64,000 nucleotides of DNA from an uncultured Chloroflexia bacterium (GTDB lineage: Bacteria > Chloroflexota > Anaerolineae > JAAYZQ01): positions 216,666-280,665 of the forward strand of contig CAWANP010000015.1 of NCBI GenBank assembly GCA_963783445.1, in the 5' to 3' direction. The position numbers were made by a program, and so were the translations under genes. Each line of letters opens with the position of its first letter. The stretch's first letter is position 1. The notes below the pieces were generated by a model. The model searched no databases and was not told the origin of the DNA. It saw only the letters and a program-made list of their open reading frames with translations. Positions 5,460 to 63,427 of this stretch are shown here, one piece after another.

Positions 5460-6046
5460 GGTTGATGACCCCTTTCTGTATCCATGGTGCAACTTTGACT
5501 GGAGATCAACCCGTGGGGGGCGTTCTCCTATCCCATCCACTGCGAGAATCTATGCTCTGCAATCTCTTTTCAGAACCATCCCAAGCCGCACCTCCACATG
5601 GTCCTGCTCGTGACCATTATAGACCCAAACGAGCGACTTGTCAAGTTAAAGCAAGATAAAAATGATTATATTTATGGTGAGCGATAGGATCTTCTCCTGA
5701 ACTTGGGGCAGATGACCGATCGTGAGAGTGGCATGGCTCCCTCGCTGCCTACCATCTACTTGGTTGTGCTACTCGCGAGGTAGTTGGCCGATCACCTGGA
5801 ACGTGTTGAGGATCCTGTCAAGCGCTTCAAGGTCCGCTTCGCTAGCGATCTGAATCTGGAGCCAGATCAGGTATGATTGGTCCTCCGGTACGGCAGCCAG
5901 ATTGAGGAAATCACTGCCCTCCCCACCGCAATTGGCATAGTGATCGTACAGACCTGTGTGGGCAGCGTCTTGATACTCTTTGCGTCCTTCGTACTGGCAG
6001 TCGCCAGAGAAATCATACTCCTCCAGGTTCAGCAGTCCCTCTCCCG

Positions 6047-6928
6047 TCATTGCTTCCAGGAGTGTGCTGGAGGCTCCAAAAAACGCGCCTGGCTCTGCCC
6101 AGGGGTACAAAAGCCCTCCAAGCTGGCCGAGGCGACGATGGCGCTTCCAAGGACCTGACCTTCAATCTGCCAGGGCTTGGTGCTAACATTCCCCCAGGCG
6201 ACAAGAGTCTCCATCGTCAACGCGCCCGAGTCGTCCCTGACGAAGGCGTACTCCGAGTAGCTTGAGGTAACGCTGTCGCTGCCAGCGCTGGCGTCGCCGG
6301 TATCGACCTCCTGGGCAAAGGAGAACGCTTGCTCCAGGACCCGGCTGTTGAGCTGGCCCTCAAGAACCTCTTCGGTCGAGAAGCGGACGATCTTCAGGTC
6401 AAGCGTATCGCCCGGCTGGTGCGTGCGCAGGATGTCGCAGCAGTCGGATTTGGCAAAGTCGGTAGCCAGGACGAGTCCCTGCAGCTCGTTGATGATGTCG
6501 CCACCTTTCACGCCAGCCTGGTCGGCGGGAGATCCCGATTCTACCGAGGAGACCCAGATGCCGGACAGGCCCTCGCCATTGTTCACCGCCTCACTGTTTA
6601 CGCCGATTGAATCGACGTCCCGGCCTGCTCTCAACTGCTCGATGACCGGCAGCGCTTCAGCCCGAGCAATGGCAAAATGCTGTTCCGTCTCCGAGTTGCC
6701 CACACAGTGGATGGCTACTACCTTGCCATCCTCGGTGACCACGGGGCCGCCTGAGTTGCCGGGGTTGGTCAGGGCGCTGTGCTCGATGACCGAGTCCACC
6801 GAGGCCCACTTGCTCTCACCACTGGCTTTTTCTTTGGACACGATCCCCTGCAACAGTGTGTATTCTGGGTCGCCCAAGGGGAAGCCGGCGGCCTCTATCT
6901 GCACCGTAGCGCTTTTCACATCCTGCAA
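6047..6928 (-). CDS. Trypsin-like (S1C/HtrA-type) serine protease C-terminal barrel plus PDZ domain. The N-terminal His/Asp half is missing, so this is probably a disrupted gene.
   Basis: GNSGGP active-site Ser motif and a PDZ segment (GIWVSSVESGSPADQAGVKGGDII). The ORF begins with TTG. No His/Asp barrel is encoded upstream in any frame. Confidence 0.55.
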   Translation of the reverse strand: MQDVKSATVQIEAAGFPLGDPEYTLLQGIVSKEKASGESKWASVDSVIEHSALTNPGNSGGPVVTEDGKVVAIHCVGNSETEQHFAIARAEALPVIEQLRAGRDVDSIGVNSEAVNNGEGLSGIWVSSVESGSPADQAGVKGGDIINELQGLVLATDFAKSDCCDILRTHQPGDTLDLKIVRFSTEEVLEGQLNSRVLEQAFSFAQEVDTGDASAGSDSVTSSYSEYAFVRDDSGALTMETLVAWGNVSTKPWQIEGQVLGSAIVASASLEGFCTPGQSQARFLEPPAHSWKQ

Positions 6929-6941
6929 GCTGGATACGGCC

Positions 6942-7439
6942 TTACCCGTGGTGGTCTGTTGAGACTGCGTCGGCCTCGGCTGGCACTGGGGTTGGCGCCT
7001 CGAGGGCGCCGCCAGGCCCGACTACCTCAAACCCGTAGGTTCCAGCGGGAGTCCCATTGACGTACAGCCTCGCCTCATACTCGTTGCCCACAGGGAATGG
7101 GTCGTCGGGGGTCAAAGTGAAACCAACGAGGGTGTTGCCGCCAACCATGAAAATGAGCCCTTCCTCTTGCCACAATTCTGCCAGATCAAGGCTGACCTCG
7201 GTTATCTCCTGGTTCCCATAGATAAAGCGTACACCCACCACGCCCTCTCTGGGATTGCCATCGAGGGTGGCCGAAAGATGGACTGTCTCCTCGGGCAGAA
7301 ATTCGCTGCCTGGATCGATGGGCTCCATCTGTTCGCCCAGACTGCGGGCATAGGTGGCATCCAGGATCTCGGGAGGCCCTTCTGGTTCGTCAGAGCCGCC
7401 ACCACAGGCCGCGACCATCAGGGCCAGAACCACGGGCAT
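6942..7439 (-). CDS. Lipoprotein of unknown function, possibly the N-terminal part of the disrupted protease gene
   Basis: Lipobox-like N-terminus MPVVLALMVAACGGGS. It ends 14 nt before the protease fragment, in another frame. Confidence 0.4.
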   Translation of the reverse strand: MPVVLALMVAACGGGSDEPEGPPEILDATYARSLGEQMEPIDPGSEFLPEETVHLSATLDGNPREGVVGVRFIYGNQEITEVSLDLAELWQEEGLIFMVGGNTLVGFTLTPDDPFPVGNEYEARLYVNGTPAGTYGFEVVGPGGALEAPTPVPAEADAVSTDHHG

Positions 7440-7454
7440 TACCGCCCCGTTTCC

Positions 7455-7898
7455 TCAATTGTCCCCTGCTTCTAGCGGGTAGCCGGCCGCATTCCAGGCT
7501 GCCAGCCCGCCCTCTAGCGCGTAGACTTGGGCCGGATCCGTTCCCTCTTTGATCACTGTCAGCGCCGCACGGGCGCTGGTCTCTTCAGCCGGTCAAGTTC
7601 AGTAGAAAACCAGTGATTTGTCGGCCGGAAGCTCAGCGGAGCGCGCGGCTGCCTCGCCAGCGGGGAAAGAGATGGCTCCAGCTGCGTGGGCCTGCTGGTA
7701 TGCGGCCTCAGAACGGGCGTCGTAGATCAGTGCATCGCCGCTATCCTGCAGTGCCTTGGCGTCTGCCGCAGTGATGCGCTGGATATCGTCAGCACTCTCC
7801 ACCACAACCTGCGGCTCGGTTGCGGGTGCAGAGCTGCCGCAAGCGGCCAATGCGAGGACTAGGCCAGTCAGGACCATCGATACAAACCATCTGTTCAT
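7455..7898 (-). CDS. Rhodanese-like sulfurtransferase lipoprotein with two in-frame TGA codons at the catalytic loop. It is a candidate selenoprotein (UxU); a pseudogene is the alternative.
   Basis: Lipoprotein signal MNRWFVSMVLTGLVLALAACGSS, then a rhodanese fold (...DALIYDARSEAAYQQAHAAGAISFP...KSLVFY). TGA occurs at the complement of 7599-7601 and 7593-7595. The same frame continues PAEETSARAALTVIKEGTDPAQVYALEGGLAAWNAAGYPLEAGDN to a stop at 7455-7457. Confidence 0.5.
7560..7578 (-). ncRNA. Candidate SECIS-like hairpin (CAGCGCC-CGUGC-GGCGCUG) 17 nt downstream of the second in-frame UGA of the rhodanese gene
   Basis: Perfect 7-bp GC stem with a 5-nt loop containing G and U. Its position is in the range typical for bacterial SECIS elements, but it is unverified. 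Confidence 0.3.
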
Positions 7899-7996
7899 TT
7901 GCAGCTCCTTCTTTAGACTGGAGGGGACCCGATCTACTCTGAGGTCTCCCGATCTAGAATCTTCTTCTTCGGCGCATATGCGGGCGGGCAGCCCTT

Positions 7997-16139: not shown

Positions 16140-17570
16140 CTACTCCCAGCCCTTGGTGAATCCACGGTCGCCGGGCACGATGCCCAACTCCTCACGCAAT
16201 TGCAGGCATTCCCGTTCAAACTCACTCACCCGCTCGCGCAATTCGGCAATCTCGCTCGGGACTTTCTTGCCGGCATCACCCAGCAGATTCTGAATCTCGG
16301 TAGGATCGCTTCGAAGATCGTAGGCCTCGTCTCCATAGTCGGGGTCGCGCACATAGGAGTGGTCCACCGTGCGGGCACCCTGCAAGAGGCTAGGGTGTCG
16401 GCCAGCGGCTGGCATGCCCGTGGGGTAAGTGGTCCCCAGGTGGCCGTGGTAGTCGCCCACCTGGGCAAAGAGGCAGTCGCGCAGCGGTTCCTGTGCCCCC
16501 TCCTGCACCCAGCGGATCAAGTCATGCCCTTGGGCATAGTCCGGGACCGGGATACCGGCGATGCCCAGGATCGTCGGGAAAAGATCGATGGCATTGACCA
16601 GGCCTGGGACTGTTTCGCCGCGCAGGGGTAGCGCTCCGGATCCTGCGGGCGGTACAATGATCAGCGGTACGTGCAGCAGGCACTCGTAGAGCGATTCGGT
16701 TTTGGCAAACATCCCCTTTTCGCCCGCATAGTCGCCGTGATCAGAGCCGATAATGATCCAGGTATTCTCCAGCAGATCATGTTCGCACAGCGCTTCGAAG
16801 ATGCGTCGCATCTGATCGTTGGCGTTGGCAATCATGCCATAGTAGATGGCGATGAGTTGCCGCATGTCGTCCTCGCTGGCGAGATCGGTCCTGCCTTCCT
16901 GATGAACGGTGAGCTGCCAGTCCGGCTGCTCGCCCTCTGCCGGTAGTACTGGCAATTCGACGTCAGCCGGGTCTACCAGGGTGTCGTAGGGCGGCGGTAC
17001 GAAATAGGGCGGGTGCGGGTCGTCAATGGCCACGTGGAGGAAAAAGGGATCGTCCGGTCTGCAGGGCCGCGTCCAGCATTTGGATGGCGCGGGTGGCGAT
17101 CAGGGCGGAATTGCCCTCCTCAGCCGTGCTGTCGATGGCGCCAGATGACCAGGCATAGTCCTGGCGGCCAGACGCGTACTTGGCCCGCATGGAGCGGTAC
17201 AGCGGCCCAGGTTGCATGAAGGAGATCTGCTCGTGCCAGCCACGGGTCAAGTTCCGCTGCTGCTCATAGTGCCCGATCACGGCCGTATAGTAGCCGGCGC
17301 CTGCAGCAGCTCGGAAAGCTGGGGCAGGTTGTAAGGCGCGCGGTTCTGGTGGCATGTTACCTGGTGGACCAGGGGGTGGACCCCGGTGAGGACCGAGGTC
17401 CGAGATGGGGTGCAGATAGAGCTGGCAGAGTAGGCATGGGCAAAGGCCACGCCCTGGCTCGCCATTTCTTCCTGGAAAGGACTGGGTACCACGGGGTTGC
17501 CATGGATGCTACAGGCCGACGCTTTCTGTTGGTCCGCCATGAGATATACGATGTTTGGACGGCGCTCCAT
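16140..17570 (-). pseudogene. Sulfatase (arylsulfatase family) split into three ORFs by two frameshifts
   Basis: The N-terminal fragment carries the formylglycine motif SICTPSRTSVLTG. The middle (17023..17355) and C-terminal (16140..17033) fragments continue the sulfatase fold in other frames. Frame breaks fall near 17030 (the ggaaaaaggg run) and ~17300. Confidence 0.7.
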
Positions 17571-17991: not shown

Positions 17992-20804
17992 GTGAACACG
18001 CTGCTCGTAACGACCAAGCTTCACATTCCTCTACCCCGCCCGGAGCGGGTCTACCGTCCCCGCCTCTTGCGGCGGCTGGAGGACGGCTTGAGCCAGGGCC
18101 ACCGGCTGGCCCTGGTCTCTGCCCCGGCTGGCTATGGTAAAACGACGCTGCTCGCTGAATGGGTGCGGCGCGGCGATCGACCAGTGGCCTGGGTTTCACT
18201 GGACGCCGGTGACAACGACTCCGTCCGCTTTTGGTCGCACGTCGCTGCCTCCCTGCAAAAGATCCACGCAGGGGCCGGCGAACCAGCGCTGGCGGCCCTG
18301 CAATCTCCCCAGCCACTTCGCGTCGAGGCTGCTTTGACAGCCTTGATCAATGAGGCCGATGCTATCCCAGAGCCCTTTACCCTCGTCCTCGATGACTATC
18401 ACCTGGTTGACGCAGGGGAGGTGCATGGTGCTCTCAGTTTCCTGCTCGAGCACCAGCCGCTCAACATGCATCTTGTGATCTCTACGCGTTCCGACCCTCC
18501 CTTGCCCATCTTCCGCCTGCGGGCCCGCAGTCAGTTGACCGAACTGCGCAATGAGGATCTTCGCTTCTCGCCTGACGAGGCGCTTGCCTTCCTGAATACG
18601 GTGATGAGCCTGGACCTGACCCGGGAGGATGTTGCCTCACTGGAGGCTCGTACCGAAGGTTGGATCGTTGGTCTACAGCTCGCTGCGCTTTCCTTGCAGG
18701 GCCGTGCGGATACGCAGTCCTTCATTGCTGCCTTCACGGGCAGCCATCACTATGTGTTGGAATACCTTACCGAGGAGGTCGTGCGGCGCCAGCCAGCGCC
18801 GATCCGGCAGTTTCTGATGCAGACGTCGATCCTGGATTGTCTGAGTGGACCGCTATGTGATGCGGTCCTGGACGGGGGTGTGGGACGAAAGATGAGGAAG
18901 CCCAGAGATCCAACCTCGACGATTTGTCCGTCGTGCTTGGGCCTTCGCCGGCGGGCGAGGAGATTCTGGCTTACCTTCAACAGCAAAACCTGTTCGTCGT
19001 TCCCCTGGATGACGAGCGCTGCTGGTACCGCTACCATCATCTGTTCGCTGACTTGTTGGCCAACCTCTTGCGCAAAGAGTGGCCCGTAGAGCATAGCCGC
19101 AAGTTGCACAGGCGCGCCAGCAAATGGTACGAGGAGCATGGCATCCCGGACGATGCCATCAAGCATGCCATACAAGCCCAGGCTTTCGAACGGGCAGCAT
19201 CGCTGATCGAGCAGTCCGCCCAGGCCGCCCTGGCGCAGGGCAGAGTCATGATGCTGCTTGGCTGGCTGGGGCCATTGCCAAATGCGGTGCTGCGCTCCAG
19301 ACCGCGCCTCTGTCTTTACCAGGCATGGGCGCTGCATCTGAGCGGGCAGTCCCGCGCAGCCAACGAGATCCTGCGGAGCGCGAGACGAGTGTTGCAGTCC
19401 CTACCGCCATCCCACGAGGATGAAGGGCTGCGTGGCCAGCTGGCTGCCCTGCTCACCAGCATTGCCATGCTTCACGAAGAACCATCTCAGATTATTGCAG
19501 AAGCCAGGGAAGCTCTGACTTTCCTCCCTGAGGAGGACTCTGTCTCGCGCGCCAGGGTGCACGTGGCGTTGGGCACAGCCCATGCCTACGAGGACGAACC
19601 AGAACAGGCTGCAGAGGCGTGGCGACGGGCCAGTAAGCTGGCACTCGAGGCCGCCAATCCCTTCTTGGCTACAGCCGCTATCGAGCTCCTGGCCGGCATG
19701 CAGATCTACCATCAAGGCCGCCTGCGGGAGGGTGCCCGGACCCTCCAGCAGGTGTTGGATCTGGGGACCACACCGGCTGGTTTGCTTCTTCCCTTCACTG
19801 CGACGGCACATGCTTTGCTGGCAGAAATCTACCTGGAATGGAACGACCTGGATGCCGCTGGCATCTATCTGGAGAGGGGGATTGAGCTGCTGCAGCGGGG
19901 GGGTATCGCCTATGGTATGACCCATACCTACTGCGCCAAAGCGCGTCTCGCGCGAGCGCTGGGCGACCGGCAGGGGCCATAGAAGCGCTTCAGGCGGCAA
20001 GGCGGGCTACCGCGAGCACACCCCATGTGGCACATGATCCTCCACCAGGCATCCTGCCAGACGCGGTTGAGCCTGTGGCTAGGTGATGTGACCGGGGCAG
20101 AGCGGTGGGCCAGCGCCGACCCGGCAACCGTCGAATGTGACCTGCCTGACAAGCTTCCGTGTTATTTGCGTGAAGTTCAACAGATCTCGCTGGCGCGGGT
20201 GTGTCTCGCCAAGGGTGAGGTAGACGATGCCCTGGAGATGCTAGATACGCTGCTTCTGGGAGCTGTGTCAGCAGGCAGGGCGGCGCACGTCGTTGAAGTC
20301 AGCCTGGTGAGGGCCCTCGCGCTGCGAGCACAAGGCAAGATCTGCGCAGCTATGAAATCGCTCGAGACTTCGCTATCAATGGCTGAACCGGAGGGGTATG
20401 TACGGACATATCTGGAAGAGGGCGAACCCTCGCGCCTACTAGTCTCAGAATTTCGGTCTCTGAGCCTGGCACAATCCCGAAAAACTCCGGTTCAGGTATC
20501 TCGTCCCCTGCTGAGATACGCTGATAGACTGTTGGCTGCATTCTCGCACACCGAGACGGAGATAGCTTTGCCACTCACCGAGACGCCGACAGCTAGAATC
20601 CAGAACCTAGTTGAGCCCTTGACAGGACGGGAACGGGAGGTACTGCAACTTATCGGCAAAGGGTACACGAACCAGGAAATTGCCGCGGCACTGGTCGTTA
20701 CCGTGAATACGGTGAAAAAGCATGCAAGCGGGATCTATGGCAAACTGGGCGTGCGCAGCCGTACCCAGGCGGTGGCACGTGCCCGCGATTGTGGGCTACT
20801 ATAG
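17992..20804 (+). pseudogene. MalT/LuxR-type large ATP-dependent transcriptional regulator (AAA ATPase, TPR-like region, LuxR HTH) with at least three frameshifts
   Basis: Walker A SAPAGYGKTTLL; central LFVVPLDDERCWYRYHHLFADLL; C-terminal LuxR HTH EREVLQLIGKGYTNQEIAAAL..VNTVKKHASGIYGKLGV. The ORFs 17992..19089, 18924..19982 and 20025..20804 are in different frames. Confidence 0.75.
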
Positions 20805-20865: not shown

Positions 20866-21192
20866 TCACTCGTTGACGACGATGGTCACGCCGAATCGAT
20901 CCTGGATGCTTGCATCCCCTTCCCATTCGCACCAGTGCTTCAGGCTGATCTGCACACTGCCGGTCGCTTTGGTCCGGAAGGTCAACACACGCTCTCCTGG
21001 ACCACCAAAGAGGGGCTCAGTTGGCAGCTCAAAGTCGTCGCGCTCCAGCGCCAGAATTCCTGGATCCGTTTCGGTAGGTGCCCACGTATAGGGGGTTGCT
21101 CCGTTCTCCTCGAGGCGCACCTCGATCAGATCACCCCGATTCACTTCAAAGGAACGGCTATTGTCGCCACGTGTCACGTTCAAGACTGACAT
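20866..21192 (-). CDS. Chagasin-family (I42) cysteine-protease inhibitor
   Basis: 108 aa with the ATPYTWAP core matching the I42 NPTTGY-W loop. It lies in the same operon as the C1 peptidase. Confidence 0.65.
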   Translation of the reverse strand: MSVLNVTRGDNSRSFEVNRGDLIEVRLEENGATPYTWAPTETDPGILALERDDFELPTEPLFGGPGERVLTFRTKATGSVQISLKHWCEWEGDASIQDRFGVTIVVNE

Positions 21193-21369
21193 CTCTTCTG
21201 CTTCTCCCTCGCTACCGTTCCAGCCTGAGGTTTCGATCGGACCAGAGCGGGACTGAAGTGCTGGCGGGGGAGGCTCTTGCGATCCCCCGCCAGCATCAAT
21301 CAGTACGACACTGATCCGTAGCTCTGAAGTGGCTGGGCGTGGAGACGCCCAGCCATCCGTACCCTCTGG

Positions 21370-21720
21370 TCAGAAGGTTTTGACGCATCTCACCTGGGTC
21401 AGTTGGTTACCGGTATCCCAGCACACAAGGATTTGGTCGGCTGCCATAGCTACCTGTACCAGGCCAGCTTCCTCGGTCGCGGTCACGTTTCGGTAGCGCC
21501 ACGAACCGCCAGCATAGGCCAGGATGCGTCGAAGCGGTGAGGTAAAGTAGCGATCCATCATCAAGTGCTGCGCTGTCCCGCAACCGGCAGCTGCAGACAA
21601 GGGCCCCGCGGCTTCCATACTCAGCTCTGTTGGCAGTGGCCCGATCTCTGCCAGCCACGGCTCGATCGATGCCTCTGCTTCTTCCATCTCTGCCAGTAGA
21701 TCCGAACCGAACTCGTACAT
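21370..21720 (-). CDS. Small protein with the unassigned ~60-aa domain (GCG.AQHLM...AYAGG.WRYRNV...LVCWD.GNQ...RCVKTF); paralog of the 23012..23367 product
   Basis: Full-length pairwise similarity to the second small ORF and to the C-terminal extension of the C1 peptidase. The likely start is MYEFGSDLL. Confidence 0.5.
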   Translation of the reverse strand: MYEFGSDLLAEMEEAEASIEPWLAEIGPLPTELSMEAAGPLSAAAGCGTAQHLMMDRYFTSPLRRILAYAGGSWRYRNVTATEEAGLVQVAMAADQILVCWDTGNQLTQVRCVKTF

Positions 21721-21816
21721 GTCTACCTCCTGTCCTCGTTTCGACCAGATCGGCATCGCTGCCAGAACCCGCGCTAGGGTGTCTTGATCGCGCGGACCAT
21801 GGTCAGCTTGTTGCCG

Positions 21817-22888
21817 TCATAGCAAGCCACGACTCGGTCGGCAGCAAAAGAGATCTTGGGCAATCCCCACCAGTTCAGCATCGCCGACGATCCGGTGGCG
21901 CCATGCGCTATCGACGTATGCCCACAGAACCACGCCACCGCCAAACTGCTTCTGGACCATCAGATGTTTGGCCTGGGCACAGCCTTTCTCGGGCTTGACG
22001 TCAACACTCACAGAGTAGAAGGCCCAACTGCTGTCGATCAGCAGCTTGCTCTGACCGTAGGCAAGGCGGAAGAAGCCAGCCTCACCCCAGCCTGTCCCCC
22101 AGCTGTTTTTGCCGATCCAGCATCCTGCGCTGTCATCGTAGCCGACGATGCAGATGCAGTGGTAGCCACGCAGAGTCGCTGCGTTGCTCACACGGTACAC
22201 GCCACTCTTGTACGCAGAAAAGTCGTTGTAGACTGCCATTCCTGCGACACCGGCCCGATAGACGAAATGGCCGTTTTGCGGGCCTCCATCGTGCTGTGGG
22301 CCTGAAAGCCCGTGATTTTTGTCAGGCGTGATTGCCAGTTGCTGCACCGGTCACTACACGGCTGATTTCGTGGCTGATAGGGAAAGCATGCATCGTCTGT
22401 CACACCAGTACTTTTGGCGTAGGCCAGACCCGACGTCAATCCCCAGCCGCTGCAGCTTCCACCTCCGCAGAACTGCATAAAGGCCTCTGACAGATCCACG
22501 GCCTTCTGGTGATTGTTGGCTTTGATACGGATGTTGGCCTCAATCGTGGCGCACGTCCCAAAGGAGACGCAGGACCCACAGCCTCCCTGGTTCTTGACCG
22601 GGGTCACATAGTTCTTTCCGTTCACATTCCGCCAGTCCCGTGCCGCAGGGGCAGCTACGGGCGCCCGCACCGTAAAGGCGCGCTTCTCTTCCTCGGCAAG
22701 CGCCTTGGTCTCGGCCGCCATCGCCCTCAGCTCTGCCCGGGTGGCGAATCCACGCCCAGGTACTTGTCCTTCTCCTCGATGGGAAGCGCCGTGAGTGTGG
22801 TTTCGCCTGGGACCCAGCCCAGGTTCTCCTCTTCGACTGCCGCTTTTATCTCAGGCACCGATAGGATCTTTTCTACCTTCTTGGCCAT
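21817..22888 (-). CDS. Papain-family (C1) cysteine peptidase with a C-terminal extension domain; interrupted by about two frameshifts
   Basis: DWR..VTPVKNQGGCGSCVSF (Cys-box), GYHCICIVGYD (His-box) and NSWGTGWGEAGFFRL (Asn/Trp box) are spread over the ORFs 22727..22960, 22188..22721 and 21817..22347. No signal peptide. Confidence 0.7.
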
Positions 22889-25613: not shown

Positions 25614-26461
25614 ATGAACAGAATCTTGGTCCTCGGTGGAACAGGAATGTTAGGCGCCCCGGCTGCCCGCCGGCTGAAGGCCGATGGCTTTGCAGTGCGG
25701 CTGATGGCACGTGATCCGGAGAAAGCCGGGGGCGTGTTCGGAGAGGGGTTTGAGATTGTTGGTGGCGACGTCGCCGACCCTGCCAGCCTGGAGTTGGCGC
25801 TGCAGGGTTGCGAAGGTGTGCACATCAGCGTCGGTGGCCCGGTCGATCAGCTCAGTGCCGAGAACGTCGCCGCCCTGGCCCCCGGACTGGGTTTGGCGCG
25901 CATCACTTATGTCTCCGGCTCGACCGTCTGTGAGGAGAACGGCTGGTTCCCGACGATCAAACAGAAGCTGGTGGCGGAAGAGGCCATCCGGGACTGTGGC
26001 GTGCCCTACACCATCCTTTGCCCCACCTGGCCCATGGAGCAGTTGCCGCGCTTCGTCATGGGTGGCCGGGCAGCCATCTGGGGCGAGCAGCCTACCCCTA
26101 TCACTGGTTCGCGGTGGAGGACCTTGCTACCATGGTCTCAAACGCCTACCAGCGGGAAGAAGCTGCCAACAAGCGGCTATACGTCCATGGGCCGGAAGCC
26201 ATCCGGATGCACGAGGCGCTGGAGCGCTACTGCCAGGGATTCCATCCCGAGATCGAGGCCGTCGCCGTCGTGCCCATCGACGCGGCCCGGGGAATGGCTG
26301 CCTCCAGCGGCAGCGAGATGCTCACGTACTTTGCTGAGCTGATGGCCTACTTTGACCAAGTTGGCGAGTTGGGCGATCCGGCCGAGGCCAACCAACTCCT
26401 TGGCGCGCCGGAGACTACATTGGACGCCTGGATCCAGCAGAGAAGAGATGCTGGCCGATGA
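25614..26461 (+). CDS. NAD(P)H-binding NmrA/SDR-like oxidoreductase (frameshift near 26095)
   Basis: Rossmann motif LVLGGTGMLG. The C-terminal part continues in the ORF 26018..26461. Confidence 0.7.
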
Positions 26462-46559: not shown

Positions 46560-48232
46560 GTGTTGGGAATTGACACTTTTCTGGAAATTCTCGCCGCTTC
46601 TGGCGTACAGTACATTTTTGGTAATCCGGGCTCGACCGAACTGCCCCTCAGCGATGCCCTGGCCAGGGACTCGCGCTTTCAATACATTTTTGGCTTGCAC
46701 GAAGGGCCCCTCACTGCCATGGGCGACGGCTATGCCATGGCTTCGGGCAAACCGGGTGTGGTCTGCGTACACATTTCCTGCGGAGTGGGCAACGCCATGG
46801 GCATGCTCTACAATGCCTACAGCGCCGGTTCGCCGCTCCTGCTCGTCGCCGGCCAGCAGGACCGGCGCCTGCGTTTGGGAGAGCCGGTACTGGCCGGTGA
46901 GACCGTTGAGCGTGACGCGTCCCTGGACCAAGTGGTCGTACGAGGTGCAGCGCGTTGAGGATGTGCCGCTGGCCGTACGCCGGGCCGTACAGACGGCACT
47001 CACGCCGCCAACGGGCCCGGTCTTTCTGTCGCTGCCGGTAGATGTCCAGCTTGAGCCGCGCGCAAGGGCTTGACCTGAGCCCGCCGTACATACCCGACCG
47101 GCGGGTCCGACCGCCGTCGGATGCCCTGCGCCAGGCCGCAGAGATGCTGGCCCAGGCCCGCAACCCGGCCATCCTGGCCGGCAGCCGGGTGACGGAGGCG
47201 GGCGCTGTGCCCGAACTGGTCGCGCTGGCCGAGCAGCTCGGCGCGCCTGTGCTGGCCGAACAGCAGACTTCCCACGCGCGGCTGCCCATGCCGGCTGACC
47301 ATCCGCTCTATGCGGGCGGCCTGCCCCTATGGGGGCCGGAGGTGCACGAGACGCCTGGCGGAATTCGACATAATCCTGGTGGTTGGCATGGATCTGCTGC
47401 GCCTCTACATTCACCAGGAGCCGCCACGGCCCATGCCGGAACAGGTGCGCCTGATCCACCTGGACGCGGACCCCTGGCAGATCGGCAAGAACTATCCGGT
47501 AGAAGTGGGCCTGGTGGGCGACCCGAAGGCCGGCCTGGCGGAGCTGGCTCAGCACCTGGCAGAGCTTCTGTCAGCGGAGCAGATCCAGGCGGCTGCCGAG
47601 CGCCGTGGAGCGCACGCCGTCCGGCGCAGGGCCGAGCAAGAGGCACTGCTGGTCCGAGATCGACAGCCAGTGGGACCTGCGGCCCATGACGCCCTACGCC
47701 TTTATGGGCGCGCTGTGCCGCGTCCTGCCGCCGGATGCCGCCGTGGTGGAGGAAGCCGTTACCACGCACCAGTACCTGCTGGAGAGGCTGGGCGTGCTGA
47801 AGGATCCCAGCGGCTACATCGGCCATCGCGGCTGGGCCCTGGGCTGGGGGCTGGGTTGCGCCATGGGCGTCAAGCTGGCCTGGCCCGACCGGCCGGCCGT
47901 GGCCCTGTCCGGTGACGGGGCGGCGCATGTATGGCATTCAGGCCCTCTGGACGGCGGCCCATCACCGCATCCCGGTGCTCTTTGTGATTGCCAACAACGC
48001 CCAGTACAAGATCCTGAAGGTCAGCGGCGACGTGATGCAGTTGCCCCAGATGGTCCAAAAGAACTACCTGGCCATGGACCTGGTCGGACCGGAGATCGAT
48101 TTCGTGGGTCTGGCCCGCTCCCTGGGTGTCCGGGCACTGCGGGTGACTGGTCCGGATGAGCTGAGCGACTGTGTAGGGGATGCACTGGCGGGCAGCGAAC
48201 CGGTTCTATTGGACGTAGTGGTCGATCGCTAA
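46560..48232 (+). pseudogene. Thiamine-diphosphate enzyme (benzoylformate decarboxylase / acetolactate synthase-like), with at least five frameshifts
   Basis: The Pyr domain (GNPGSTELPL...HEGPLTAMGDGYA), a central domain and the PP domain (GWALGWGLGCAMG...SGDGAA...NNAQY) are spread over six ORFs in different frames. Confidence 0.65.
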
Positions 48233-48376: not shown

Positions 48377-50435
48377 ATGGAAGACTGGTTGCTAGCCATC
48401 GCGAGGAGGTTCGGGCTTGACCCTGAGACCTCGAGCCCACTCGATCAGGCGGCTGCCGCTTGGGGTTTCTTTGGTGTTCTCTACTCGGTACCGCTGGCGC
48501 TCGCAGGCCTCGTGTGGCTCGCTGCCGCTACGGATGTGCGCCTGATCCGTGCCGAATGGCCGACACTATTGCTCCTCTGCGCGTTCCTCTTTCTCTTCAA
48601 GAGGTTCAGGTTCTTCTTTTTCATCGAGTCGCCTGGCAGACAGCAGACCAGATTTGATAGCACATTCGAGCCCATTGTCTACTGGTCGGCAGCCCTGATA
48701 TTCGGCCCCACCGCCCTGTGGCTGCCCGTGCTTCTGGACACGCTAGACTACGCCCACAGGGTGCGCCAGGAGCCCAGGATCTTTGGACGCTGGGATATCT
48801 CTCGCAACCTGCTACACAACCTGGTCAGCATAACGCTCGCCAGCCTGATCGCGCTGGCCCTCTACGAGTACTGGGGTGGTGAGTTCCCTTTCCCGGGCCT
48901 GACAGTGACGGCCGTCCTGCCTGCTGTCCTGGCGACGCTCGTTCACATGTGCCTGCAGATACTACTCTATGCGCCCCTGCTGTTCTACATCGCAGCGGGC
49001 TGGTCACCGGCGTTTCGCCAGGATCCGGGTTGGCTGAGTACGCTTACCTGGGGTCTGGGCATCACCCTGGGGGCCGTCGGCCTGATCGAACTCTTTGCCA
49101 TTCTGGCGGCGGGTCTGTACACCGACAATGGTCTCGGTGTCTATTTCGCCTTTCTCATTGGCCTGCTACTGGTGAGCTGGCTAGCCTTTAGGCTGAGCAC
49201 GTACTTGGAGCGCAGTCAGCAACGGTCGCGCGAGCTGGAGAGATTGGAGGAGCTGGGGCGTGCCATCCTGAGAGCGCCGCCAGACGCCTCCACGCTGCCT
49301 GACCTGCTGGACGAGCACGCCGGCAGCATGTTCCTGCGAAGCCAGATCGAGATTCACCTCTATCCCAACCGGACGCTGTTGCACAGCCCTGACAACTGGC
49401 CGCCGGTCAGTGGTCCAACCTGGAAGTGGCTGCGAGCAAACCCCGAGGCGCGCTTCTATCTGCCTGAGACCAGCCTTCCCTGGGATGAACAAGTGGATCA
49501 CACCGTCGGGATGGCCCTGGCCCCGATCTTTGAAGCCGAAAGTGGGGGGGATGCTCCATCGCTGCCCATGGGTGGCATCTATTTGCGGCGAGATCACGAT
49601 CCTCTCGATGTGGCCAGCCTTCTGCCAGCCCTGCAGTCGCTGGCTGCCCAGATCGCATCCGCGTTACACAGGGCCAAAGTGTTCCGGATCGAGCAGGAAC
49701 TGGCTGTCGCCGGCCGGATCCAGGCCAGTTTCCTACCGGAAAGCTTGCCCCAGATCCCTGGCTGGCAGTTGGCAGCGGCGTTGGTACCCGCTCGGGAGAC
49801 CTCGGGCGATTTCTACGACGTCATCCCGCTGCCGGATGGCTCCTGGGGCCTACTGGTGGCCGACGTGGCCGACAAGGGCACCGGGGCTGCGCTGTATATG
49901 GCCCTGAGCCGGACGCTCGATCCGCACCTTTGCCGTAGAATACCCCCAGCAGCCGGATCTCGCCTTGGGAGCCGCCAACCGGCGCATCCTGGCCGATGCC
50001 AGCGCCGATCTCTTTGTCACGGTCTTTTACGGCGTACTGAATCCGGACTCAGGCACGCTGACCTACTGCAATGCAGGCCACAATCCACCCTTCCTCCTGG
50101 AGAATGAGGCTGGCGACCGGCCCCAGGCTCTGACCGGTACGGGGCTGCCGTTGGGGGTCCTGGAGGACGAGATCTGGGAGCCACGCTCCGTCCGGCTCGA
50201 CGAAGGGAGCGCCCTGGTGCTGTACACGGATGGAGTAACGGAGGCGCGGAATGCCCAGGACGAGCTGTTTGGCAAGGAGCGGTTGCTCGAGGTCCTGAGA
50301 GCAAGCCAGGGGACGACTGCACAGGGGATCCAGGAGGCTGTACTTGGGGCAGTGCATGAATTCGCAGCGGATTCTCCCCATTCACAGTACGATGACATCA
50401 CGCTTATGGTCCTGGTGCGGGGTGGGCCGCGATAG
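48377..50435 (+). CDS. Polytopic membrane sensor fused to a PP2C (SpoIIE) phosphatase; frameshift near 49950
   Basis: About 8 TM helices, then PP2C motifs ([29 protein letters not shown]). Confidence 0.75.
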
Positions 50436-55635: not shown

Positions 55636-55918
55636 AGACGCATTATACCCTCAACCAACCCCGGCGTCAATCTGGCGCAGTGACCTGCTCAAAGTTCGTT
55701 GATTCTGCTCGTTCCGGTCAAGATCTGAGAGTAACCACCTGCTCCGGTTGACATACTGTGTACAATGTGGTACACTTGACGGGAAGCTGGGGGCCGCCGC
55801 AGGTACATCCTGAGGTCGGGTTCTCAATGGCATCATGGCCTGGTGAGGGTATGGATCTTTTGGGATGGGGCGTGGTTCAGGCAGTGCGTGGCGCATGCGT
55901 GTGACAGGAGGTGGAGAG

Positions 55919-57601
55919 ATGAAAGGGTCAACTCTGTGGAAGTATCTGGCAGCGGGTCTGGCAATAGCGCTCCCGTTGGGCCTGTTGCTCATGGCCTTGC
56001 CGATAGTGGTTTGGGCGTCTACTCCCGCTTCTCGCCTCTACGAGTCTCTGCCTACCATCCAGGTGGCCAAGTCAGCCAATCCGGCCCAAGTACCCGAGCC
56101 GGGCGGCACGGTGACTTTTCAGGTCAAGGTCAGGAATACGAGTAGCGACGACCTGGCTGTGACCCTGGTGCGCCTTGAGGACAACCTCTATGGTGATCTG
56201 ACCAACTCGGGGAACTCGAACATCTCCAACAGCACCTGCTCTTCGGTCGCCATCCAGGCTGGGGATACCTACCAATGTACCTTTCAGGCCGAGGTGAGTG
56301 GCAGCGGTGGCAGCAGTGTGACGGATACGGTGACGGCCAAGGTCAAAGATGCTGTGGGCAACGCGGCGCAAGCCAGCGCCCAGGCCACGGTCACCATCAC
56401 CGCTGGCGAACCATCCGCGCTTGAGGTCGCCAAAAGCGCCAATCCGACGCAAGTGACCGAGCCTGGTGGTACAGTGACCTTCCAGGTGAAGGTGCGCAAC
56501 AGTGGCGGTGGGCAGGCCTTGACGCTGGTCCGCCTGGAGGACAATCCCTACGGCGACCTGACCAGTGGGGGCAATTCAAACATCTCCAATACTACTTGTT
56601 CCCTGGCTACGATTCAACCCGGGGATACCTACCAGTGTAAATTCGAGGCCGGGGTCACGGGCAGCGGGGGCAGCACGGCGACCGATACGGTGACGGCCAA
56701 GGCCAAGGATGCTGCGGGCAACGCGGTTCAGGCCAGTGCCCAGGCCTCTGTGGACATCATTGCCGGGGAAAAGCTGGGGATCACGGTGGAAAAGAGCGCC
56801 AACCCGTCGCAAGTCACAGAGCCGGGGGGTACCGTGACCTACCAGGTCAAAGTGCGCAACAGCTCAGGCGGGGTGAGCCTGCAACTCGCGCGCTTGGAGG
56901 ATAACCTCTATGGTGATCTCACCAGTGCAGGCAACGCGAGTATCTCCAACAGCACCTGTGGGCTGACCACCATCTCACCCGGGGGCACCTACCAGTGCTC
57001 CTTCCAGGCGGAGGTGACTGGCAGCAATGGCACCAGTGTGACAGATACAGTGACCGCCAAGGCCAAAGATCCTGCGGGCAACGCAGTACAAGCCAGCGAC
57101 CAGGCCACGGTGACCATCGGCGCCCAGCCGAAGCCTGGTATCGGCGTCAAAAAGAAGGCCAACCCTACCTGGGTGCTTGAGCCAGGTGGCACGGTGACTT
57201 TTAAGGTGCAGGTGTCGAACAATAGTCCGGCCGGCTTGCCGGTGACCTTGTCCCAGATGCAGGACAACGTCTACGGCGACCTGACCGACCTGGCAAACCC
57301 CAACATCTCTAATAGCAACTGCCAACTTGCCACGATTCAACCGGGCAATACTTACCAGTGCTCTTTCCAAGGCCAAGTGTCAGGTAATGCGGGAACTACA
57401 GTCACCGACACGGTAAGCGTCATCGCCAAGGACAACTCGGGCAACCAGGTGCAGGTCAGTGCCAAGGCCACCGTCCAAATTCTCAGCGAGCCTCCGGATA
57501 CGGGTGTTCCCTTGCCACCCCCGGTTATCGCCGGTGGTCTCATGGCCCTGGGTGCGGCAGCTCTAGGAGCGGGTGCGCTGGTGAATCGCCGGGCAAGCTG
57601 A
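55919..57601 (+). CDS. Secreted surface protein with four ~115-aa DUF11 repeats and a C-terminal hydrophobic/RR tail
   Basis: Signal peptide. The unit AKSANP.QV.EPGGTVT.QVKVRN...L.LVRLEDN.YGDLT..GN.NISN.TC...TIQ.GDTYQC.F.A.V.GS.G...TDTVTAK.KD is repeated four times. The C-terminus is PPDTGVPLPPPVIAGGLMALGAAALGAGALVNRRAS. Confidence 0.8.
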   Translation: MKGSTLWKYLAAGLAIALPLGLLLMALPIVVWASTPASRLYESLPTIQVAKSANPAQVPEPGGTVTFQVKVRNTSSDDLAVTLVRLEDNLYGDLTNSGNSNISNSTCSSVAIQAGDTYQCTFQAEVSGSGGSSVTDTVTAKVKDAVGNAAQASAQATVTITAGEPSALEVAKSANPTQVTEPGGTVTFQVKVRNSGGGQALTLVRLEDNPYGDLTSGGNSNISNTTCSLATIQPGDTYQCKFEAGVTGSGGSTATDTVTAKAKDAAGNAVQASAQASVDIIAGEKLGITVEKSANPSQVTEPGGTVTYQVKVRNSSGGVSLQLARLEDNLYGDLTSAGNASISNSTCGLTTISPGGTYQCSFQAEVTGSNGTSVTDTVTAKAKDPAGNAVQASDQATVTIGAQPKPGIGVKKKANPTWVLEPGGTVTFKVQVSNNSPAGLPVTLSQMQDNVYGDLTDLANPNISNSNCQLATIQPGNTYQCSFQGQVSGNAGTTVTDTVSVIAKDNSGNQVQVSAKATVQILSEPPDTGVPLPPPVIAGGLMALGAAALGAGALVNRRAS

Positions 57602-58881: not shown

Positions 58882-59793
58882 ATGAGTCAAGACAGTACAA
58901 TCGGACGTGGAGGTAAAGAGATGGAATCTAAGAATCGAGGCATCTGGCTCATCGTGGCTGTGATCGTCGTCCTTGCCTGCTGCTGCCTGCTGGCTTGTTC
59001 GGCGGTAGGCGTGGGCCTGCTTGCATGGCCGTCGCTGCAGCGGGTTTCAGACCAGCTACCAGTAGGAGACACGGAGGGCGGTCCTCATACGCAGCGCATC
59101 AACGAGAGCTTTGATGTTGGGGGTGAGCCCACCTTGCGGATCGACGGCTTTGCCGGAGGGGTCACGGTTCGCGGTGACGAGGTGGAGGCGATCCAGGTCG
59201 TCGCCAAGAAAAAGGCCCGGCGCCGGAGCGATCTGGACCGGATCGAGATCAGCATGGTTGAGCACGACGGCAGTCTGGAGATCAAGACCAGGAACCCATC
59301 CCGCGCCAACAACGCCTCTGTCTCGTTTGAGATCACGGTACCGGCTGCCACTCATCTGGAGGTGGATTTGGCAGCGGGGAGTGTCGTTGTGGAAGGCCTG
59401 ACTGGGGGTGTGCGGCTGGACAACGCGGCTGGGGCAATCGTACTCAAGGACGTCAGCGGTGGGATCGGCGCCCGTACCGCCGCAGGGACTGTTAGCGCCC
59501 ACGGGGCGACCGGCCCGGTGAGCCTGGAGTCTGCCGCCGGCGTCATCGAATACCAGGGAACGCCCCAGGGCGACTGCCACTTTGGCGCGGCTGTCGGCAG
59601 CATCTCCCTCGACCTGCCCGCCGATCCGGACGTGGCCGTCGATCTCCAGGCCACCATCGGCGCCGTCGACGCGGCCTGTGACGTGGAGGGACTGACTACA
59701 GGGCGAAAGCTCAGCGGCATCATCGGTACCGGCGCCCAGGGTACTGTCACAGCGCGCGCGACCGTGGGAGACATTGATATGGTCTGCCGGTAG
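58882..59793 (+). CDS. DUF4097-like putative adhesin / beta-helix repeat protein with an N-terminal TM anchor
   Basis: TM helix WLIVAVIVVLACCCLLA, then repetitive G.V.V-type beta-strand repeats typical of DUF4097. Confidence 0.6.
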   Translation: MSQDSTIGRGGKEMESKNRGIWLIVAVIVVLACCCLLACSAVGVGLLAWPSLQRVSDQLPVGDTEGGPHTQRINESFDVGGEPTLRIDGFAGGVTVRGDEVEAIQVVAKKKARRRSDLDRIEISMVEHDGSLEIKTRNPSRANNASVSFEITVPAATHLEVDLAAGSVVVEGLTGGVRLDNAAGAIVLKDVSGGIGARTAAGTVSAHGATGPVSLESAAGVIEYQGTPQGDCHFGAAVGSISLDLPADPDVAVDLQATIGAVDAACDVEGLTTGRKLSGIIGTGAQGTVTARATVGDIDMVCR

Positions 59794-59900
59794 GGAAAGA
59801 GGGGGGACGACGGACGGCAGACGACGGACGAAAGACGCAACACGAATTTCGCAACACGCAACACGTGGTACGAGTCACGAACGACCAAGGAGGAGTCAAG

Positions 59901-60304
59901 TGAATCAATTGAATGAACACGAGATGAAACTGCACGTGACTATCATCGGCTGGCTGAATATCGTCTCCAATGCCATGCTATTGGGGGTGGGGTTGTGTGG
60001 CTGCCTGTTCTTTGCAGGCATCGGTATCTTTGCCGCCGCCGATAGCGGCGACGCGGTCGCCCTGGGCATCTTGGGTACCATCGGTGCGGTAGCCCTGCTG
60101 TTCTTTGCGGTGCTGGCCTTGCCAGGCATGCTGGCAGGCTACGGCCTTCTGAGGCGCAAGAAATGGGGGCAGATCCTGGGCATCGTCGTCGGTATTCTGA
60201 GCCTGATCAACTTTCCAATCGGGACCGCCATCGGCGCCTACACGCTGTTCGTCCTTTTTCAGGATGCGGCGACCGACTACTTTGCAGGTGCGGAAGCGGG
60301 CTAG
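59901..60304 (+). CDS. Small membrane protein
   Basis: Three TM helices; GTG or internal ATG start. Confidence 0.4.
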
Positions 60305-60516: not shown

Positions 60517-61400
60517 ATGGACAGAATGCGGCTCATACCGGTCATCCTGGCCGTCCTCTTGGGCCTGACCGCGTGCCGAGAGGCACGAGGCCCCGCCCCG
60601 GCGCCGATTGCGACTGTCGAACTTGCAGAGATCCATCTCGTCCTGTATGTAGACAGAGACTTGGGCATCAGAGGTGTCATACCTGATGGTTGGTTCGAGA
60701 CCATGCCTGGCCTCTTTCCCGGCATGTACCTGGCGAGCCCTCCAGAGACCCGTCCCGGGACGGTACTCATCCAACCGCTGGAGGCAGGCGCCACGTTTGA
60801 CCAGGCGGCCGAGGAGTGGGCACCCCGGCTGGGCCTGGAGGAAGAGCCAAAACTCACCGGCAGCCGGGAGTCGGGAGTCGGCTAGTCTGGCTTGGGTTCT
60901 GTACACGTTCAGCAGCGTGGATCCCAATCTGGGGCCCAGAAAGGCCGACATCGCCGTGGCTGAAGGTGACGATGGCGTCTACCTGGTCATCATGGTCACT
61001 GCAGAGGACGAGTACCTGGCTTTGCATGACGCCCTGTTCCTGCCCGCTGTAGACGCCCTGAAGCCAGCCGTTGATGTGGAATCCCGGTATGCGGACTATG
61101 TGGACTGGCCCATCGTCGCCAGCATTGGGGAGGTAGGCAGCGACGCGCACGAGACGATCGACTTTCGACTGGATGCCTGTACCCGCCTGCGCCTGTATAC
61201 CATTGGACAGGGCGATCGGACAGGCATGGTAGACCTTGCCTTCGTCGAGGACGCGGCAAAGGGTCAGGTTCGTCTGGCGGATGCGCTACGCCGATACCGA
61301 GTCCGCCGGCTACCACCTGAACCGCCGTGTGGACCGCGTCCTGACACTGCCGGCCGGCGACTATCGCCTGCATTTCTTGACGGACGGCTCCCATGACTAT
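60517..61400 (+). CDS. Lipoprotein of unknown function (about two frameshifts)
   Basis: Lipobox LGLTAC. The protein continues in the ORFs 60674..61396 and 61236..61583. Confidence 0.4.
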
Positions 61401-61405
61401 GACGA

Positions 61406-61900
61406 ATGGGGCGCCTGCCCGGGCACCGCTTTTGGGGCGTCACCCCGTGGCAGGACCGGACGGCTGGAACAGAGCCTGCCGCGTGCTGGCCGCGGGTGGG
61501 CAGGCCCGAAGACCTGGGTTGGTCTTCCGCTGGCCTGGATGAGCTCAGCGGTGTACTGGAGGGGAGTGAGGTCGCGGCGCTGATGGTCGTAACCAAGGGC
61601 TATCTTGTCTTTGAGTGGGGCAACACGGCCAACAACTTGAGCGCACATTCGATCCGCAAGAGTCTGCTGAGCGCGCTCTATGGTGTCTACGTCGGCGAAG
61701 GGGTGATCGAAGCTAAAGAGGCTGGCCGAAATGTGGTGGGTCGCCGAGGAGAGCCTGGCCGGCATCAAGAAAGGGCCCTACGCCGCCAGTGGCTGGGGCG
61801 GCCATACGCTGGAGGTCTTGCCCCTCCTGAATACGGTTGTCGTCATCCGCTACGACACTGACGACCCCGCTTTCACCGGGGACTATGCAGGTGCCTCATT
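61406..61900 (+). pseudogene. Remnant of a beta-lactamase-family serine hydrolase (N-terminal SxxK region plus C-terminal end; the middle ~200 aa are absent)
   Basis: LDELSGVLEGSEVAALMVVTKGYLVFEWGNTANNLSAHSIRKSL (SxxK) joins, in another frame, to ...KKGPYAASGWGGHTLEVLPLLNTVVVIRYD. Confidence 0.4.
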
Positions 61901-62188
61901 AGACCGGTGAGATTGCTGCGACGAGCCGGGCAGTACCCACTGCCTTATCCCTCAAAGATGTGGACGAGGTCGTCGACCAAAGCACGGGAACTTGCCTGGT
62001 GGCTCTAGCTCCAGGTTCCCGGAATGAGTCGACGGCAACGATGACCAGTTGCGCATGGACCACAGTCCACGCCCCGCAGCCAAGCGCTGGACTCTTGGCC
62101 AAACCTGTGCTATAGTCTATGAGAACCCAGCCGGTACTCTGGCCAGTCTGCGTCCCAACGACGCTTGCGGTGGAGAAAGGTGGTCAAG

Positions 62189-62620
62189 ATGAAGCGCATT
62201 GTTGCCCTGTGGGGAAGCAAGCGATGGCGGACGACGATCATCTATATAATCATCGGCGCGGTCGCCCTGATCGCGGCCTTTCTGGTAGGCGTGGCCGACA
62301 ACCTTCCGGGGCTGGCCCTGGTCTACGTGGCCGTCACCGCCTTCATGCTGGCCCTGGTGCACACCTGGCGCAGTGTCAAGAGGTTCCTCGATCCTCCTCG
62401 GGGCGTCGCTGCTGGGCTTCCCGCTCGCCGTGGTACTGCACAATCTGTTCTATGCCCTGGCCGAGTTGGCTTCTGATTTCGTGGGGCTGGTGCAGTTCCT
62501 GGGCTTGCTGGAAGTGCTGTTCTTCCTGGTGGCGGTGGTCATCTGCCCGCCGGGCGCCCTAGTCGGGGCGGTGGGCGCCGCGGTCATGGCCATCTCTCCG
62601 CGCCAGGCACAAACGGGGCC
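62189..62620 (+). CDS. Hypothetical membrane protein (frameshift near 62380)
   Basis: Hydrophobic helices in the ORFs 62165..62476 and 62373..62801. Confidence 0.35.
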
Positions 62621-62757
62621 CGGATGGGATGTCCTTGTAGCGAGGCGTACCAGGCTTCCGAAGTCGCGAACCCTCCGACTGCGCTCAGGGCAGGCCTGTG
62701 GTGCGTCCGAGACTTCGGAGGTGTATGACTATGGCTATGACAGAGTGGGAGTAGCCC

Positions 62758-63427
62758 ATGACAGCAGAGATCAAAGAAACCCTCAAAAAAACGGTGGTTG
62801 AGGCTGGGCAGACGATGGTCCGAGAGCGCCTGACGCTTGGGTACCTGGGGCAACGTCAGCCTGCGCGACCCTGTGACGGGATTCATCTATATTACCCCCA
62901 GTGGCATCCCCTACATGGAGATCCAGGTTTCGGACATTGTGGTGATGAACAGCGACCAGGAGATCGTCGGCGGCCATCGCATTCCCTCCATCGAACGGGG
63001 CATGCACATCGCCGTCTACAATGCCCGCGAAGACGTGAACGCCGTCGTGCATTCCCATCCCCTCTATTCGAGCGTGCTGGGCGTCAACCACATGGAGTTG
63101 CCGGGCATGAGCGAGGATTTTGTCCAGATTGTAGCAGACAAGATCATCTGCTCCGAGTACGCCCTGCCCGGCACACCCGAGCTGGCCCGCAACGTGGTGG
63201 CGGCCCTGGGCGAGCGGAACGCGGTGCTGCTGCCCAACCACGGGACGCTATGCGCCGGCGAGGACATGACGCGTACCCTGTTGATCAGCCAGGCGGTGGA
63301 AAAGACGGCCCAGATCTATATCATGGCCAAGAGTATCGGCACGCCGCACCTGATCTCCCAGGAGCACATCGAGGCCATGCAGTGGTACGCCCGGAACGTC
63401 TACGGCCAGCGGCCGGAGACCCAGTGA
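62758..63427 (+). CDS. Class II aldolase/adducin-family protein (fuculose-phosphate aldolase-like); frameshift near 62840
   Basis: LGTWGNVSLRD (after frame correction), metal ligands HSHP and His residues, AVLLPNHG. Confidence 0.7.

Follow-up and report, generated by a model that had tools for sequence, protein, structure and literature searches.

A 64,000-nucleotide (nt) stretch of contig CAWANP010000015.1 from an uncultured Chloroflexia bacterium (assembly GCA_963783445.1; the whole stretch is referred to here as the window) contains 15 genes, among the ∼43 located between 5.8 and 63.4 kb (∼35%), that are split across reading frames. Approximately 31 frame changes were found in total, with an extra base in 22 cases and a missing base in 9. 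Most of these changes are likely not biological but errors in the consensus of a Nanopore-type metagenome assembly, because the broken genes look fully selected and are intact in relatives. The analysis shows that the breaks are present, that they are confined to this assembly, and that the affected genes carry no sign of relaxed constraint. The original prediction offered two explanations, i.e., indel-prone sequencing or assembly and active genome decay. Private breaks, normal ratios of nonsynonymous to synonymous substitution rates (dN/dS), the lack of nonsense codons, and successful repair favor the first for most sites and speak against the second.

We propose that the window very probably comes from an assembly of Nanopore reads that received no short-read polishing and that two classes of error would have resulted. 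First, single bases would be missing, mostly beside runs of four or five G, C, or A residues, which is the classic undercalling of homopolymers. Second, single extra bases would have been introduced into ordinary, nonrepetitive sequence. Each affected gene would then be reported by gene callers as two to six pieces. A small component of real decay is possible and would concern a PDZ protease, a lipoprotein (at 60517), and a polyferredoxin; the PDZ protease and the lipoprotein, which is beta-lactamase-like, may be truly defective in addition.

Extent of the split genes

The coding frame was followed along the window (G+C, ∼60%) with a codon-usage frame tracer trained on long open reading frames (ORFs); in frame plots based on G+C content at third codon positions, the signal was too weak for frame tracing. 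The tracer showed a coding signal that keeps its strand but jumps frame at many places, and neighboring same-strand ORFs in different frames matched successive segments of one profile (Pfam, NCBIfam, or PDB) or of one ortholog. Searches with orthologs (tblastn) gave the same picture of split genes as the profile matches, and the number of split genes was far above chance expectation. Breaks occur at a density of 0.52 per kb with only mild clustering (dispersion index of 1.3 to 2.1, i.e., nearly Poisson), and they strike runs of adjacent, unrelated genes.

The earlier count of at least 15 split genes holds for 14 of the 15 genes named, as judged from profile or ortholog alignments across the junctions, but the gene listed as “small protein A” could not be identified. 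A further split gene, encoding a 149-amino-acid (aa) membrane protein (h149), was found beyond that list, and the positions of the sulfatase and MalT/LuxR regulator genes were corrected to those in Table 1. ORFs 58921 to 59790 and 59900 to 60298 were considered as one split gene, but ortholog alignment identified them as two separate intact genes. The integrity of very long genes had also been pointed out. The 1,626-aa kinase, whose gene spans 4.9 kb, is indeed unbroken, but this carries no statistical weight, as the probability of zero hits at 0.52 breaks per kb is 0.08. Rfam and tRNA scans of the window gave no matches.

Selection and repair of the broken genes

Pieces of split genes, including those downstream of breaks, have dN/dS values of 0.04 to 0.26, compared with 0.07 to 0.17 in intact neighbors. 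The out-of-frame middle piece of the sulfatase has a dN/dS of 0.086, and the tail of the B12-binding radical SAM enzyme (rSAM) has a value of 0.069. The dN/dS comparison suggested with the original prediction therefore gives no indication of relaxed selection in the split genes.

Repair was equally informative for the genes with precisely mapped insertions. Removal of the mapped inserted bases, and nothing else, restored the length of the ortholog in L026, a locus of a close relative described below, exactly or to within one residue in four of six genes: the large thiamine pyrophosphate (TPP) enzyme (555/555 aa), h149 (149/149), the aldolase (222/222), and the SpoIIE sensor (685/686). The other two (rSAM and the short TPP enzyme) became single uninterrupted ORFs. 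Of 88 columns without variation across 114 homologs, none is violated by the repaired large TPP enzyme, and a relative-rate count at conserved sites gave five lineage-specific changes for the window and nine for L026. From indel-to-substitution ratios, natural accumulation of five neutral indels would be expected to leave several stop codons in the same gene, along with dozens of substitutions free of constraint.

None of the candidate in-frame stops of the window was verified as a nonsense codon, against the ∼31 frame changes. The candidates at 19980, 21370, 21817, 25581, and 7593 to 7601 proved to be gene ends, a double frame change (19980), or conserved TGA codons. Likewise, no transposase or insertion sequence (IS) domain was present among the Pfam scan matches of the window. 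In a collection of 15 billion proteins, the broken fragments were found only on this one contig, which is 382,826 bp long and deposited at NCBI and ENA, and the exactly repaired proteins were not found there; neither result is decisive.

These observations bear directly on the possibility that the frame changes are real mutations, with active and very recent gene decay, following a change of lifestyle or loss of repair, having newly inactivated approximately one-third of the genes. In favor of decay, several genes have multiple hits, as do old pseudogenes, and in the PDZ protease a deletion at a microhomology has taken away the catalytic His and Asp. The beta-lactamase-like gene is ∼170 residues short, with little of it left in two relatives (L025 and L026), and the polyferredoxin breaks recur in a Logan contig (L028). 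Decay is nonetheless improbable as an explanation of the breaks in general. It would have to produce ∼31 frame changes and no nonsense codon, to leave dN/dS unchanged even downstream of breaks, and to spare every invariant column of a TPP enzyme with five insertions, with no acceleration of its rate. Nearly Poisson hits on runs of adjacent, unrelated genes, the lack of IS elements in the Pfam scans, an insertion bias outside repeats that is opposite to known mutational spectra, and the presence of the same kind of lesion at other places in Nanopore-only relatives all argue against it.

Pseudogene-rich genomes in reductive evolution are known from Mycobacterium leprae, Sodalis glossinidius, and host-restricted Salmonella. 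The window resembles these genomes in its many interrupted genes, some with several lesions, and in the internal deletions of two genes. It differs from them in lacking nonsense codons, IS expansion, raised dN/dS, and shared lesions and in having an insertion rather than a deletion bias.

Nature and sequence context of the lesions

Nucleotide alignment with relatives placed 14 sites to the exact base. Twelve are single-base insertions (17054, 37673, 41415, 46911, 47058, 47353, 47649, 47926, 49918, 62390, 62595, and 62837), and two are deletions (6110 and 17301). Real bacterial mutation is deletion biased, which is opposite to the excess of insertions here.

The two classes of lesion differ in context. 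Among missing-base sites, seven of nine are ≤10 nt from a run of ≥4 identical bases, against a background of 22% (P = 6 × 10−4), whereas extra-base sites do so at background level (7 of 22) and fall in ordinary, nonrepetitive sequence. The earlier association of break points with homopolymers is thus borne out for the missing-base minority but not for the extra-base class. The homopolymer coordinates previously quoted as break points are also displaced, by ∼10 nt: the true breaks are at ∼6110 in the PDZ protease, at ∼17054 in the sulfatase, and at ∼30573, not 30655, in the polyferredoxin.

GATC is overrepresented in the window (449 sites, versus 293 ± 17 in dinucleotide-preserving shuffles), and 4 of the 14 exactly placed sites lie ≤5 nt from a GATC (P ∼ 0.04 in a post hoc test). 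This proximity might be a weak hint of methylation-linked basecalling error. A methylation motif as the cause of the indels was not relied on, given the high frequency of GATC and a P value of only ∼0.04 obtained post hoc.

Programmed ribosomal frameshifting or recoding, by which the genes would be expressed in full, is known in prfB, dnaX, and IS3-family transposases. As in those genes, a frame change is needed to obtain the full protein, and the repaired proteins look functional, but nothing else points in this direction. The window sites lack a slippery sequence, and no common motif or sequence context was found among the ∼31 break sites; several sites fall in one gene, and up to five events would be needed in a single gene. 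No site is conserved, orthologs being plain ORFs, and this nonconservation effectively refutes programmed frameshifting, to which we attach almost no probability.

The insertion excess could also be explained biologically if this were a free-living Chloroflexota population with a very recent burst of +1 insertions, caused by a defect in a polymerase or in repair, that inactivated approximately one-third of its genes before substitutions accrued. Were the breaks real in this way, they would represent an unusual, explosive inactivation of genes in a free-living bacterium, and the presence of the polyferredoxin breaks in a Logan contig as well would be the first hint of such a burst. The evidence is against it, and we consider this scenario very improbable.

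Comparison with relatives

The assembly-error interpretation was examined further with three sets of related sequences. The first relative, the metagenome-assembled genome (MAG) MFD09964.bin.2.208 of an uncultured Chloroflexia bacterium, was located in a genome scan and has a kinase 90% identical to that of the window. One locus of this MAG (L001) is syntenic with the window from 1.5 to 17.6 kb, at ∼87% nucleotide identity. A second locus on the same contig (L026) and its counterpart in a conspecific MAG (L025; 97 to 98% identical to L026) are syntenic with the window from 44 to 63 kb. The region from 36 to 46 kb is covered by JGI contig L023, together with L021, L022, and L024. Every break that can be compared is absent from L001/L026, L025, L023, L021, and L024, where the gene is intact. 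Comparison with orthologs in close relatives, proposed originally as a check on shared frameshifts, thus shows that the frameshifts are not shared.

The relatives have single-base indels of their own, in different places and at a density equal to that of the window. The kinase of L001 contains two single-base insertions (14166 and 14253), and that of the window is intact. Between L025 and L026, there are ∼20 single-base indels over ∼20 kb (L025 positions 2182 to 2912 and 18103; L026 positions 20319 to 20729), mainly in nonhomopolymer coding sequence. These indels break AMP-binding and TPP genes in L025, a GH3 gene in L026, and MFS genes in both. Synonymous-to-nonsynonymous ratios remain normal in the affected genes.

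In the same genes, 13 to 22% of codons differ between L025 and L026, versus 1.6 to 10% in genes without indels. This locally raised substitution divergence would be expected from strain mixing, i.e., a consensus that switches between coassembled haplotypes, with indels where the strains differ. The mild clustering of breaks in the window and the occasional substitutions by which Logan contigs differ from it are also consistent with mixing. Within the window, however, split genes resemble their orthologs, fragment by fragment, as closely as intact genes do, and strain mixing is an unlikely but not negligible source of the breaks.

MFD-LR MAGs (named in the form MFDxxxxx.bin.x.y) are Nanopore-only assemblies, produced by Flye (--meta --nano-hq) and one round of Medaka (PMC12313526). 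A near-finished consensus requires ∼40-fold coverage, below which indels fragment gene calls (PMC9262707, from the same group). Nanopore-only (Flye and Medaka) assemblies evaluated with the IDEEL test resemble the window in that single-base indels cut conserved ORFs and missing bases occur at homopolymers (PMC12313526, PMC9262707, and PMC12007338). Further similarities are a density of ∼0.5 per kb and the restriction of indels to individual assemblies, and the MFD-LR relatives show the same. The window differs in that two-thirds of its events are extra bases in nonrepetitive sequence and in that its sequencing technology, and hence the cause of its breaks, is something that we infer.

Two other differences between the window and its relatives were seen. 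A DUF11/CLIPPER repeat surface protein encoded beside a sortase (55865 to 57601) is 578 aa long in the window and 680 aa long in L025 and L026 (7680 to 9722); this difference in repeat copy number may be genuine or stem from assembly collapse. Window regions 17.6 to ∼35.8 kb and 51.1 to 54.8 kb had no nucleotide match in the retrieved loci of the relatives and, from sequence comparison, look like variable gene content between species that are ∼87% identical.

Same-strain contigs and observations that are difficult to reconcile with assembly error

Logan contigs L027, L028, and L029 (run ERR11523668) represent essentially the same strain as the window. Over 5,181 nt, they differ from it by two substitutions and one G3/G2 indel at 29206, where the window has GG and L028 has GGG in an apparently intergenic position. 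They cover one split gene only, that of the polyferredoxin; one of the contigs ends 258 nt before the SpoIIE break.

Four observations weigh against consensus error as the general explanation. First, the two missing-base changes of the polyferredoxin are also present in L028. They are thus not the noise of a single assembler; either they are real, or the reads carry them systematically. If ERR11523668 is an Illumina run, the two breaks are real; we infer that it is a Nanopore run, because MFD used NCBI SRA for its Illumina data and ENA for its long-read data. Second, deletions of 285 nt in the PDZ protease and of ∼500 nt in the lipoprotein at 60517 are inexplicable by single-base errors. Third, extra bases in a nonrepetitive context are not the textbook Nanopore error. 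Fourth, there is the failure, already noted, to find exactly repaired proteins in the protein collection.

Individual split genes

Split genes are listed in Table 1. Those in the 5′ part of the window (5.7 to 31 kb) include the PDZ protease, whose ortholog is intact in L001. The window gene has a missing base at ∼6110, beside an A4 run, and a net +1 change at ∼6961 to 6971, where a Pro/Ala linker differs in length by 10 nt. Compared with L001, it also has an in-frame deletion of 285 nt (95 codons) at ∼6884 to 6903, flanked by the 9-nt microhomology GC(T/C)GC(T/C)GGC. The deletion removes the catalytic His and Asp, and the Pfam Trypsin_2 match is reduced to profile positions 82 to 144, versus 1 to 144 in L001, yet dN/dS is still ∼0.15 to 0.17. 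The sequence suggests either real, recent inactivation or a noncatalytic variant.

In the sulfatase, 82 codons are out of frame between ∼17301, where a base is missing, and ∼17054, where an extra base lies within GGGATCGTCCGG. Alignment with the L001 ortholog gives garbage and stop codons only in the stretch between the two sites, and the Pfam Sulfatase profile is matched from 1 to 89 and then from 161 to 301 in separate frames. In the MalT/LuxR-type regulator, one base is missing at ∼18882 (G5 run), and the frame changes twice within a short distance, at ∼19972 (G4) and ∼20015, around the apparent stop at 19980. The pieces of the regulator match AAA_16 and TPR_MalT 1 to 176, followed by TPR_MalT 196 to 325 and GerE; after repair, TPR_MalT 148 to 325 is contiguous (100.2 bits).

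The Peptidase_C1 profile is matched by the papain-family peptidase from 2 to 145 and from 140 to 211 in different frames, and the repaired tail aligns across the second junction with a paralogous small protein at 21373 to 21816. The minus-strand region from 20866 to 22748 encodes this peptidase, then the small protein with the same C-terminal domain (…CYDGNKLTMVRAIKTP and …CWDTGNQLTQVRCVKTF), and then a chagasin-family I42 inhibitor, an arrangement that looks like a protease-inhibitor cassette. The repaired alpha/beta hydrolase matches residues 7 to 155 of carboxylesterase NP (PDB 4ccw) through the junction, and repair extends the NmrA profile match from 3 to 149 in the fragment to 3 to 250. 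The polyferredoxin is broken at ∼30555 to 30577 (C5 run, ∼30573) and at ∼30905 (GGCCGG). It is read in three frames, with the CX3CP motif in frame 0, DPF and the second motif in frame 2, and CxxCxxCxxxC in frame 1, and NCBIfam NapH 54 to 210 spans the first junction.

Table 1. Genes of the window that are split by frame changes (positions are those of the whole stretch)
Gene	Position	Strand	Frame changes or supporting alignment
Trypsin-like/PDZ protease lipoprotein	5772-7451	−	656-aa L001 ortholog, intact, aligns in frames −3/−1/−3
Sulfatase	16143-17570	−	476-aa L001 ortholog aligns over its full length
MalT/LuxR-type regulator (AAA_16, TPR_MalT, GerE)	17992-20804	+	Collinear Pfam pieces
Papain-family C1 peptidase	21781-22748	−	Frame changes at ∼22266 and ∼21845
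Alpha/beta hydrolase with N-terminal membrane anchor	24117-25242	+	Extra base at ∼24470
NmrA-like NAD(P)-binding protein	25614-26461	+	Missing base at ∼26090
NapH-like polyferredoxin	30247-31041	+	Two missing-base changes
B12-binding radical SAM enzyme (rSAM)	36542-37949	+	One extra G at 37673 (GGT[G]TCC)
FAD-dependent (DAO) oxidoreductase	38396-39579	+	Extra bases at ∼38514 and ∼38773
Short TPP enzyme (TPP_N and TPP_C)	40861-42001	−	One extra base at 41415
Large TPP enzyme, benzoylformate decarboxylase-like	46560-48232	+	Five single-base insertions
Membrane sensor with SpoIIE/PP2C phosphatase domain	48377-50435	+	One extra C at 49918
Lipoprotein with beta-lactamase-family C-terminal domain	60517-62115	+	∼5 frame changes (60872, 61287, 61415, 61722, and 61906)
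Membrane protein h149 (149 aa)	62189-62640	+	Extra G at 62390 and extra T at 62595
Class II aldolase	62758-63427	+	One extra T at 62837

In the 3′ part (36 to 63.5 kb), rSAM is intact in L023, L021, and L024 (477 to 478 aa), and nucleotide alignment shows one insertion in the window; repair gives a single ORF of 469 aa, versus 477 aa (stop to stop) in L023. The DAO profile is matched from 1 to 35, 29 to 121, and 112 to 353 in three frames, and the repaired oxidoreductase aligns with sarcosine oxidase (1y56_B) at 5 to 369. The two domains of the short TPP enzyme, TPP_N and TPP_C, are encoded in different frames, and the ortholog of L023, the only intact one, aligns with these in turn; the repaired ORF has 380 aa, versus 402 aa in L023 (stop to stop).

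In the large TPP enzyme, an inserted C is present at 46911, 47649, and 47926 and an inserted G at 47058 and 47353. The L026 ortholog aligns over six successive frames, and profile matches fall into pieces (TPP_N 5 to 106; TPP_M 2 to 67 and 69 to 137; TPP_C 3 to 58 and 59 to 151). Removal of the five bases gives a protein with no stops and no gaps that is 90% identical to this ortholog, and >100 homologs share its length of 555 aa. The SpoIIE sensor is intact in L026 and L025 (686 aa), and SpoIIE profile positions 30 to 189 are matched behind the frame change. The h149 ortholog of L026 aligns with the window in three frames, and aldolase orthologs of 222 aa are present in L025 and L026.

The lipoprotein at 60517 aligns collinearly over residues 5 to 405 with intact homologs P0196 and P0197, both of which carry a Beta-lactamase domain. 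Compared with homologs P0196 to P0200, it lacks ∼170 residues (∼500 nt) of this domain at ∼61715 to 61731. In L025 and L026, 1,185 nt of the gene (395 codons, in frame) are absent (window positions 60850 to 62034; ∼4709 in the relatives), and an ORF of 91 aa remains. From these alignments, the gene seems to be eroding by deletion across the whole clade.

A candidate selenoprotein beside the PDZ protease

A rhodanese-like lipoprotein gene next to the PDZ protease (7458 to 7900, minus strand) contains two in-frame TGA codons (TGA ACT TGA, 7593 to 7601) in the active-site loop (...LVFY*T*PAEETSARAAL..., with asterisks for the TGAs). It was rejected as a pseudogene. Both TGAs are also present in the L001 ortholog (6381 to 6890, minus strand). 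From the first TGA onward, 54 nt are 100% identical in the window and L001, compared with ∼85% in the flanks, and they hold a hairpin (CAGCGCC-CGUGC-GGCGCUG) located 16 to 22 nt 3′ of the UGAs. The best NCBIfam match is NF041203 (“rhodanese_LYCAU rhodanese-related (seleno)protein”), at 77.9 bits, which is below the cutoff of 115. On sequence grounds, the lipoprotein is probably a selenoprotein with a UxU motif; the form already known is CxU (PMC13188914).

Implications

Caution about exact coding sequence (CDS) boundaries in this region, urged in the original prediction, is justified: ∼35% of the genes would be misannotated as fragments. CDS boundaries and pseudogene calls are unreliable in the window and probably in the whole MAG too, and the repaired reading frames provide better gene models. 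Extra-base errors in ordinary sequence, beyond deletions at homopolymers, would dominate such assemblies, which is relevant to tools for frameshift correction. If most of the breaks are consensus errors, as we consider likely, then the split genes are not a real feature of the biology of this Chloroflexia bacterium.

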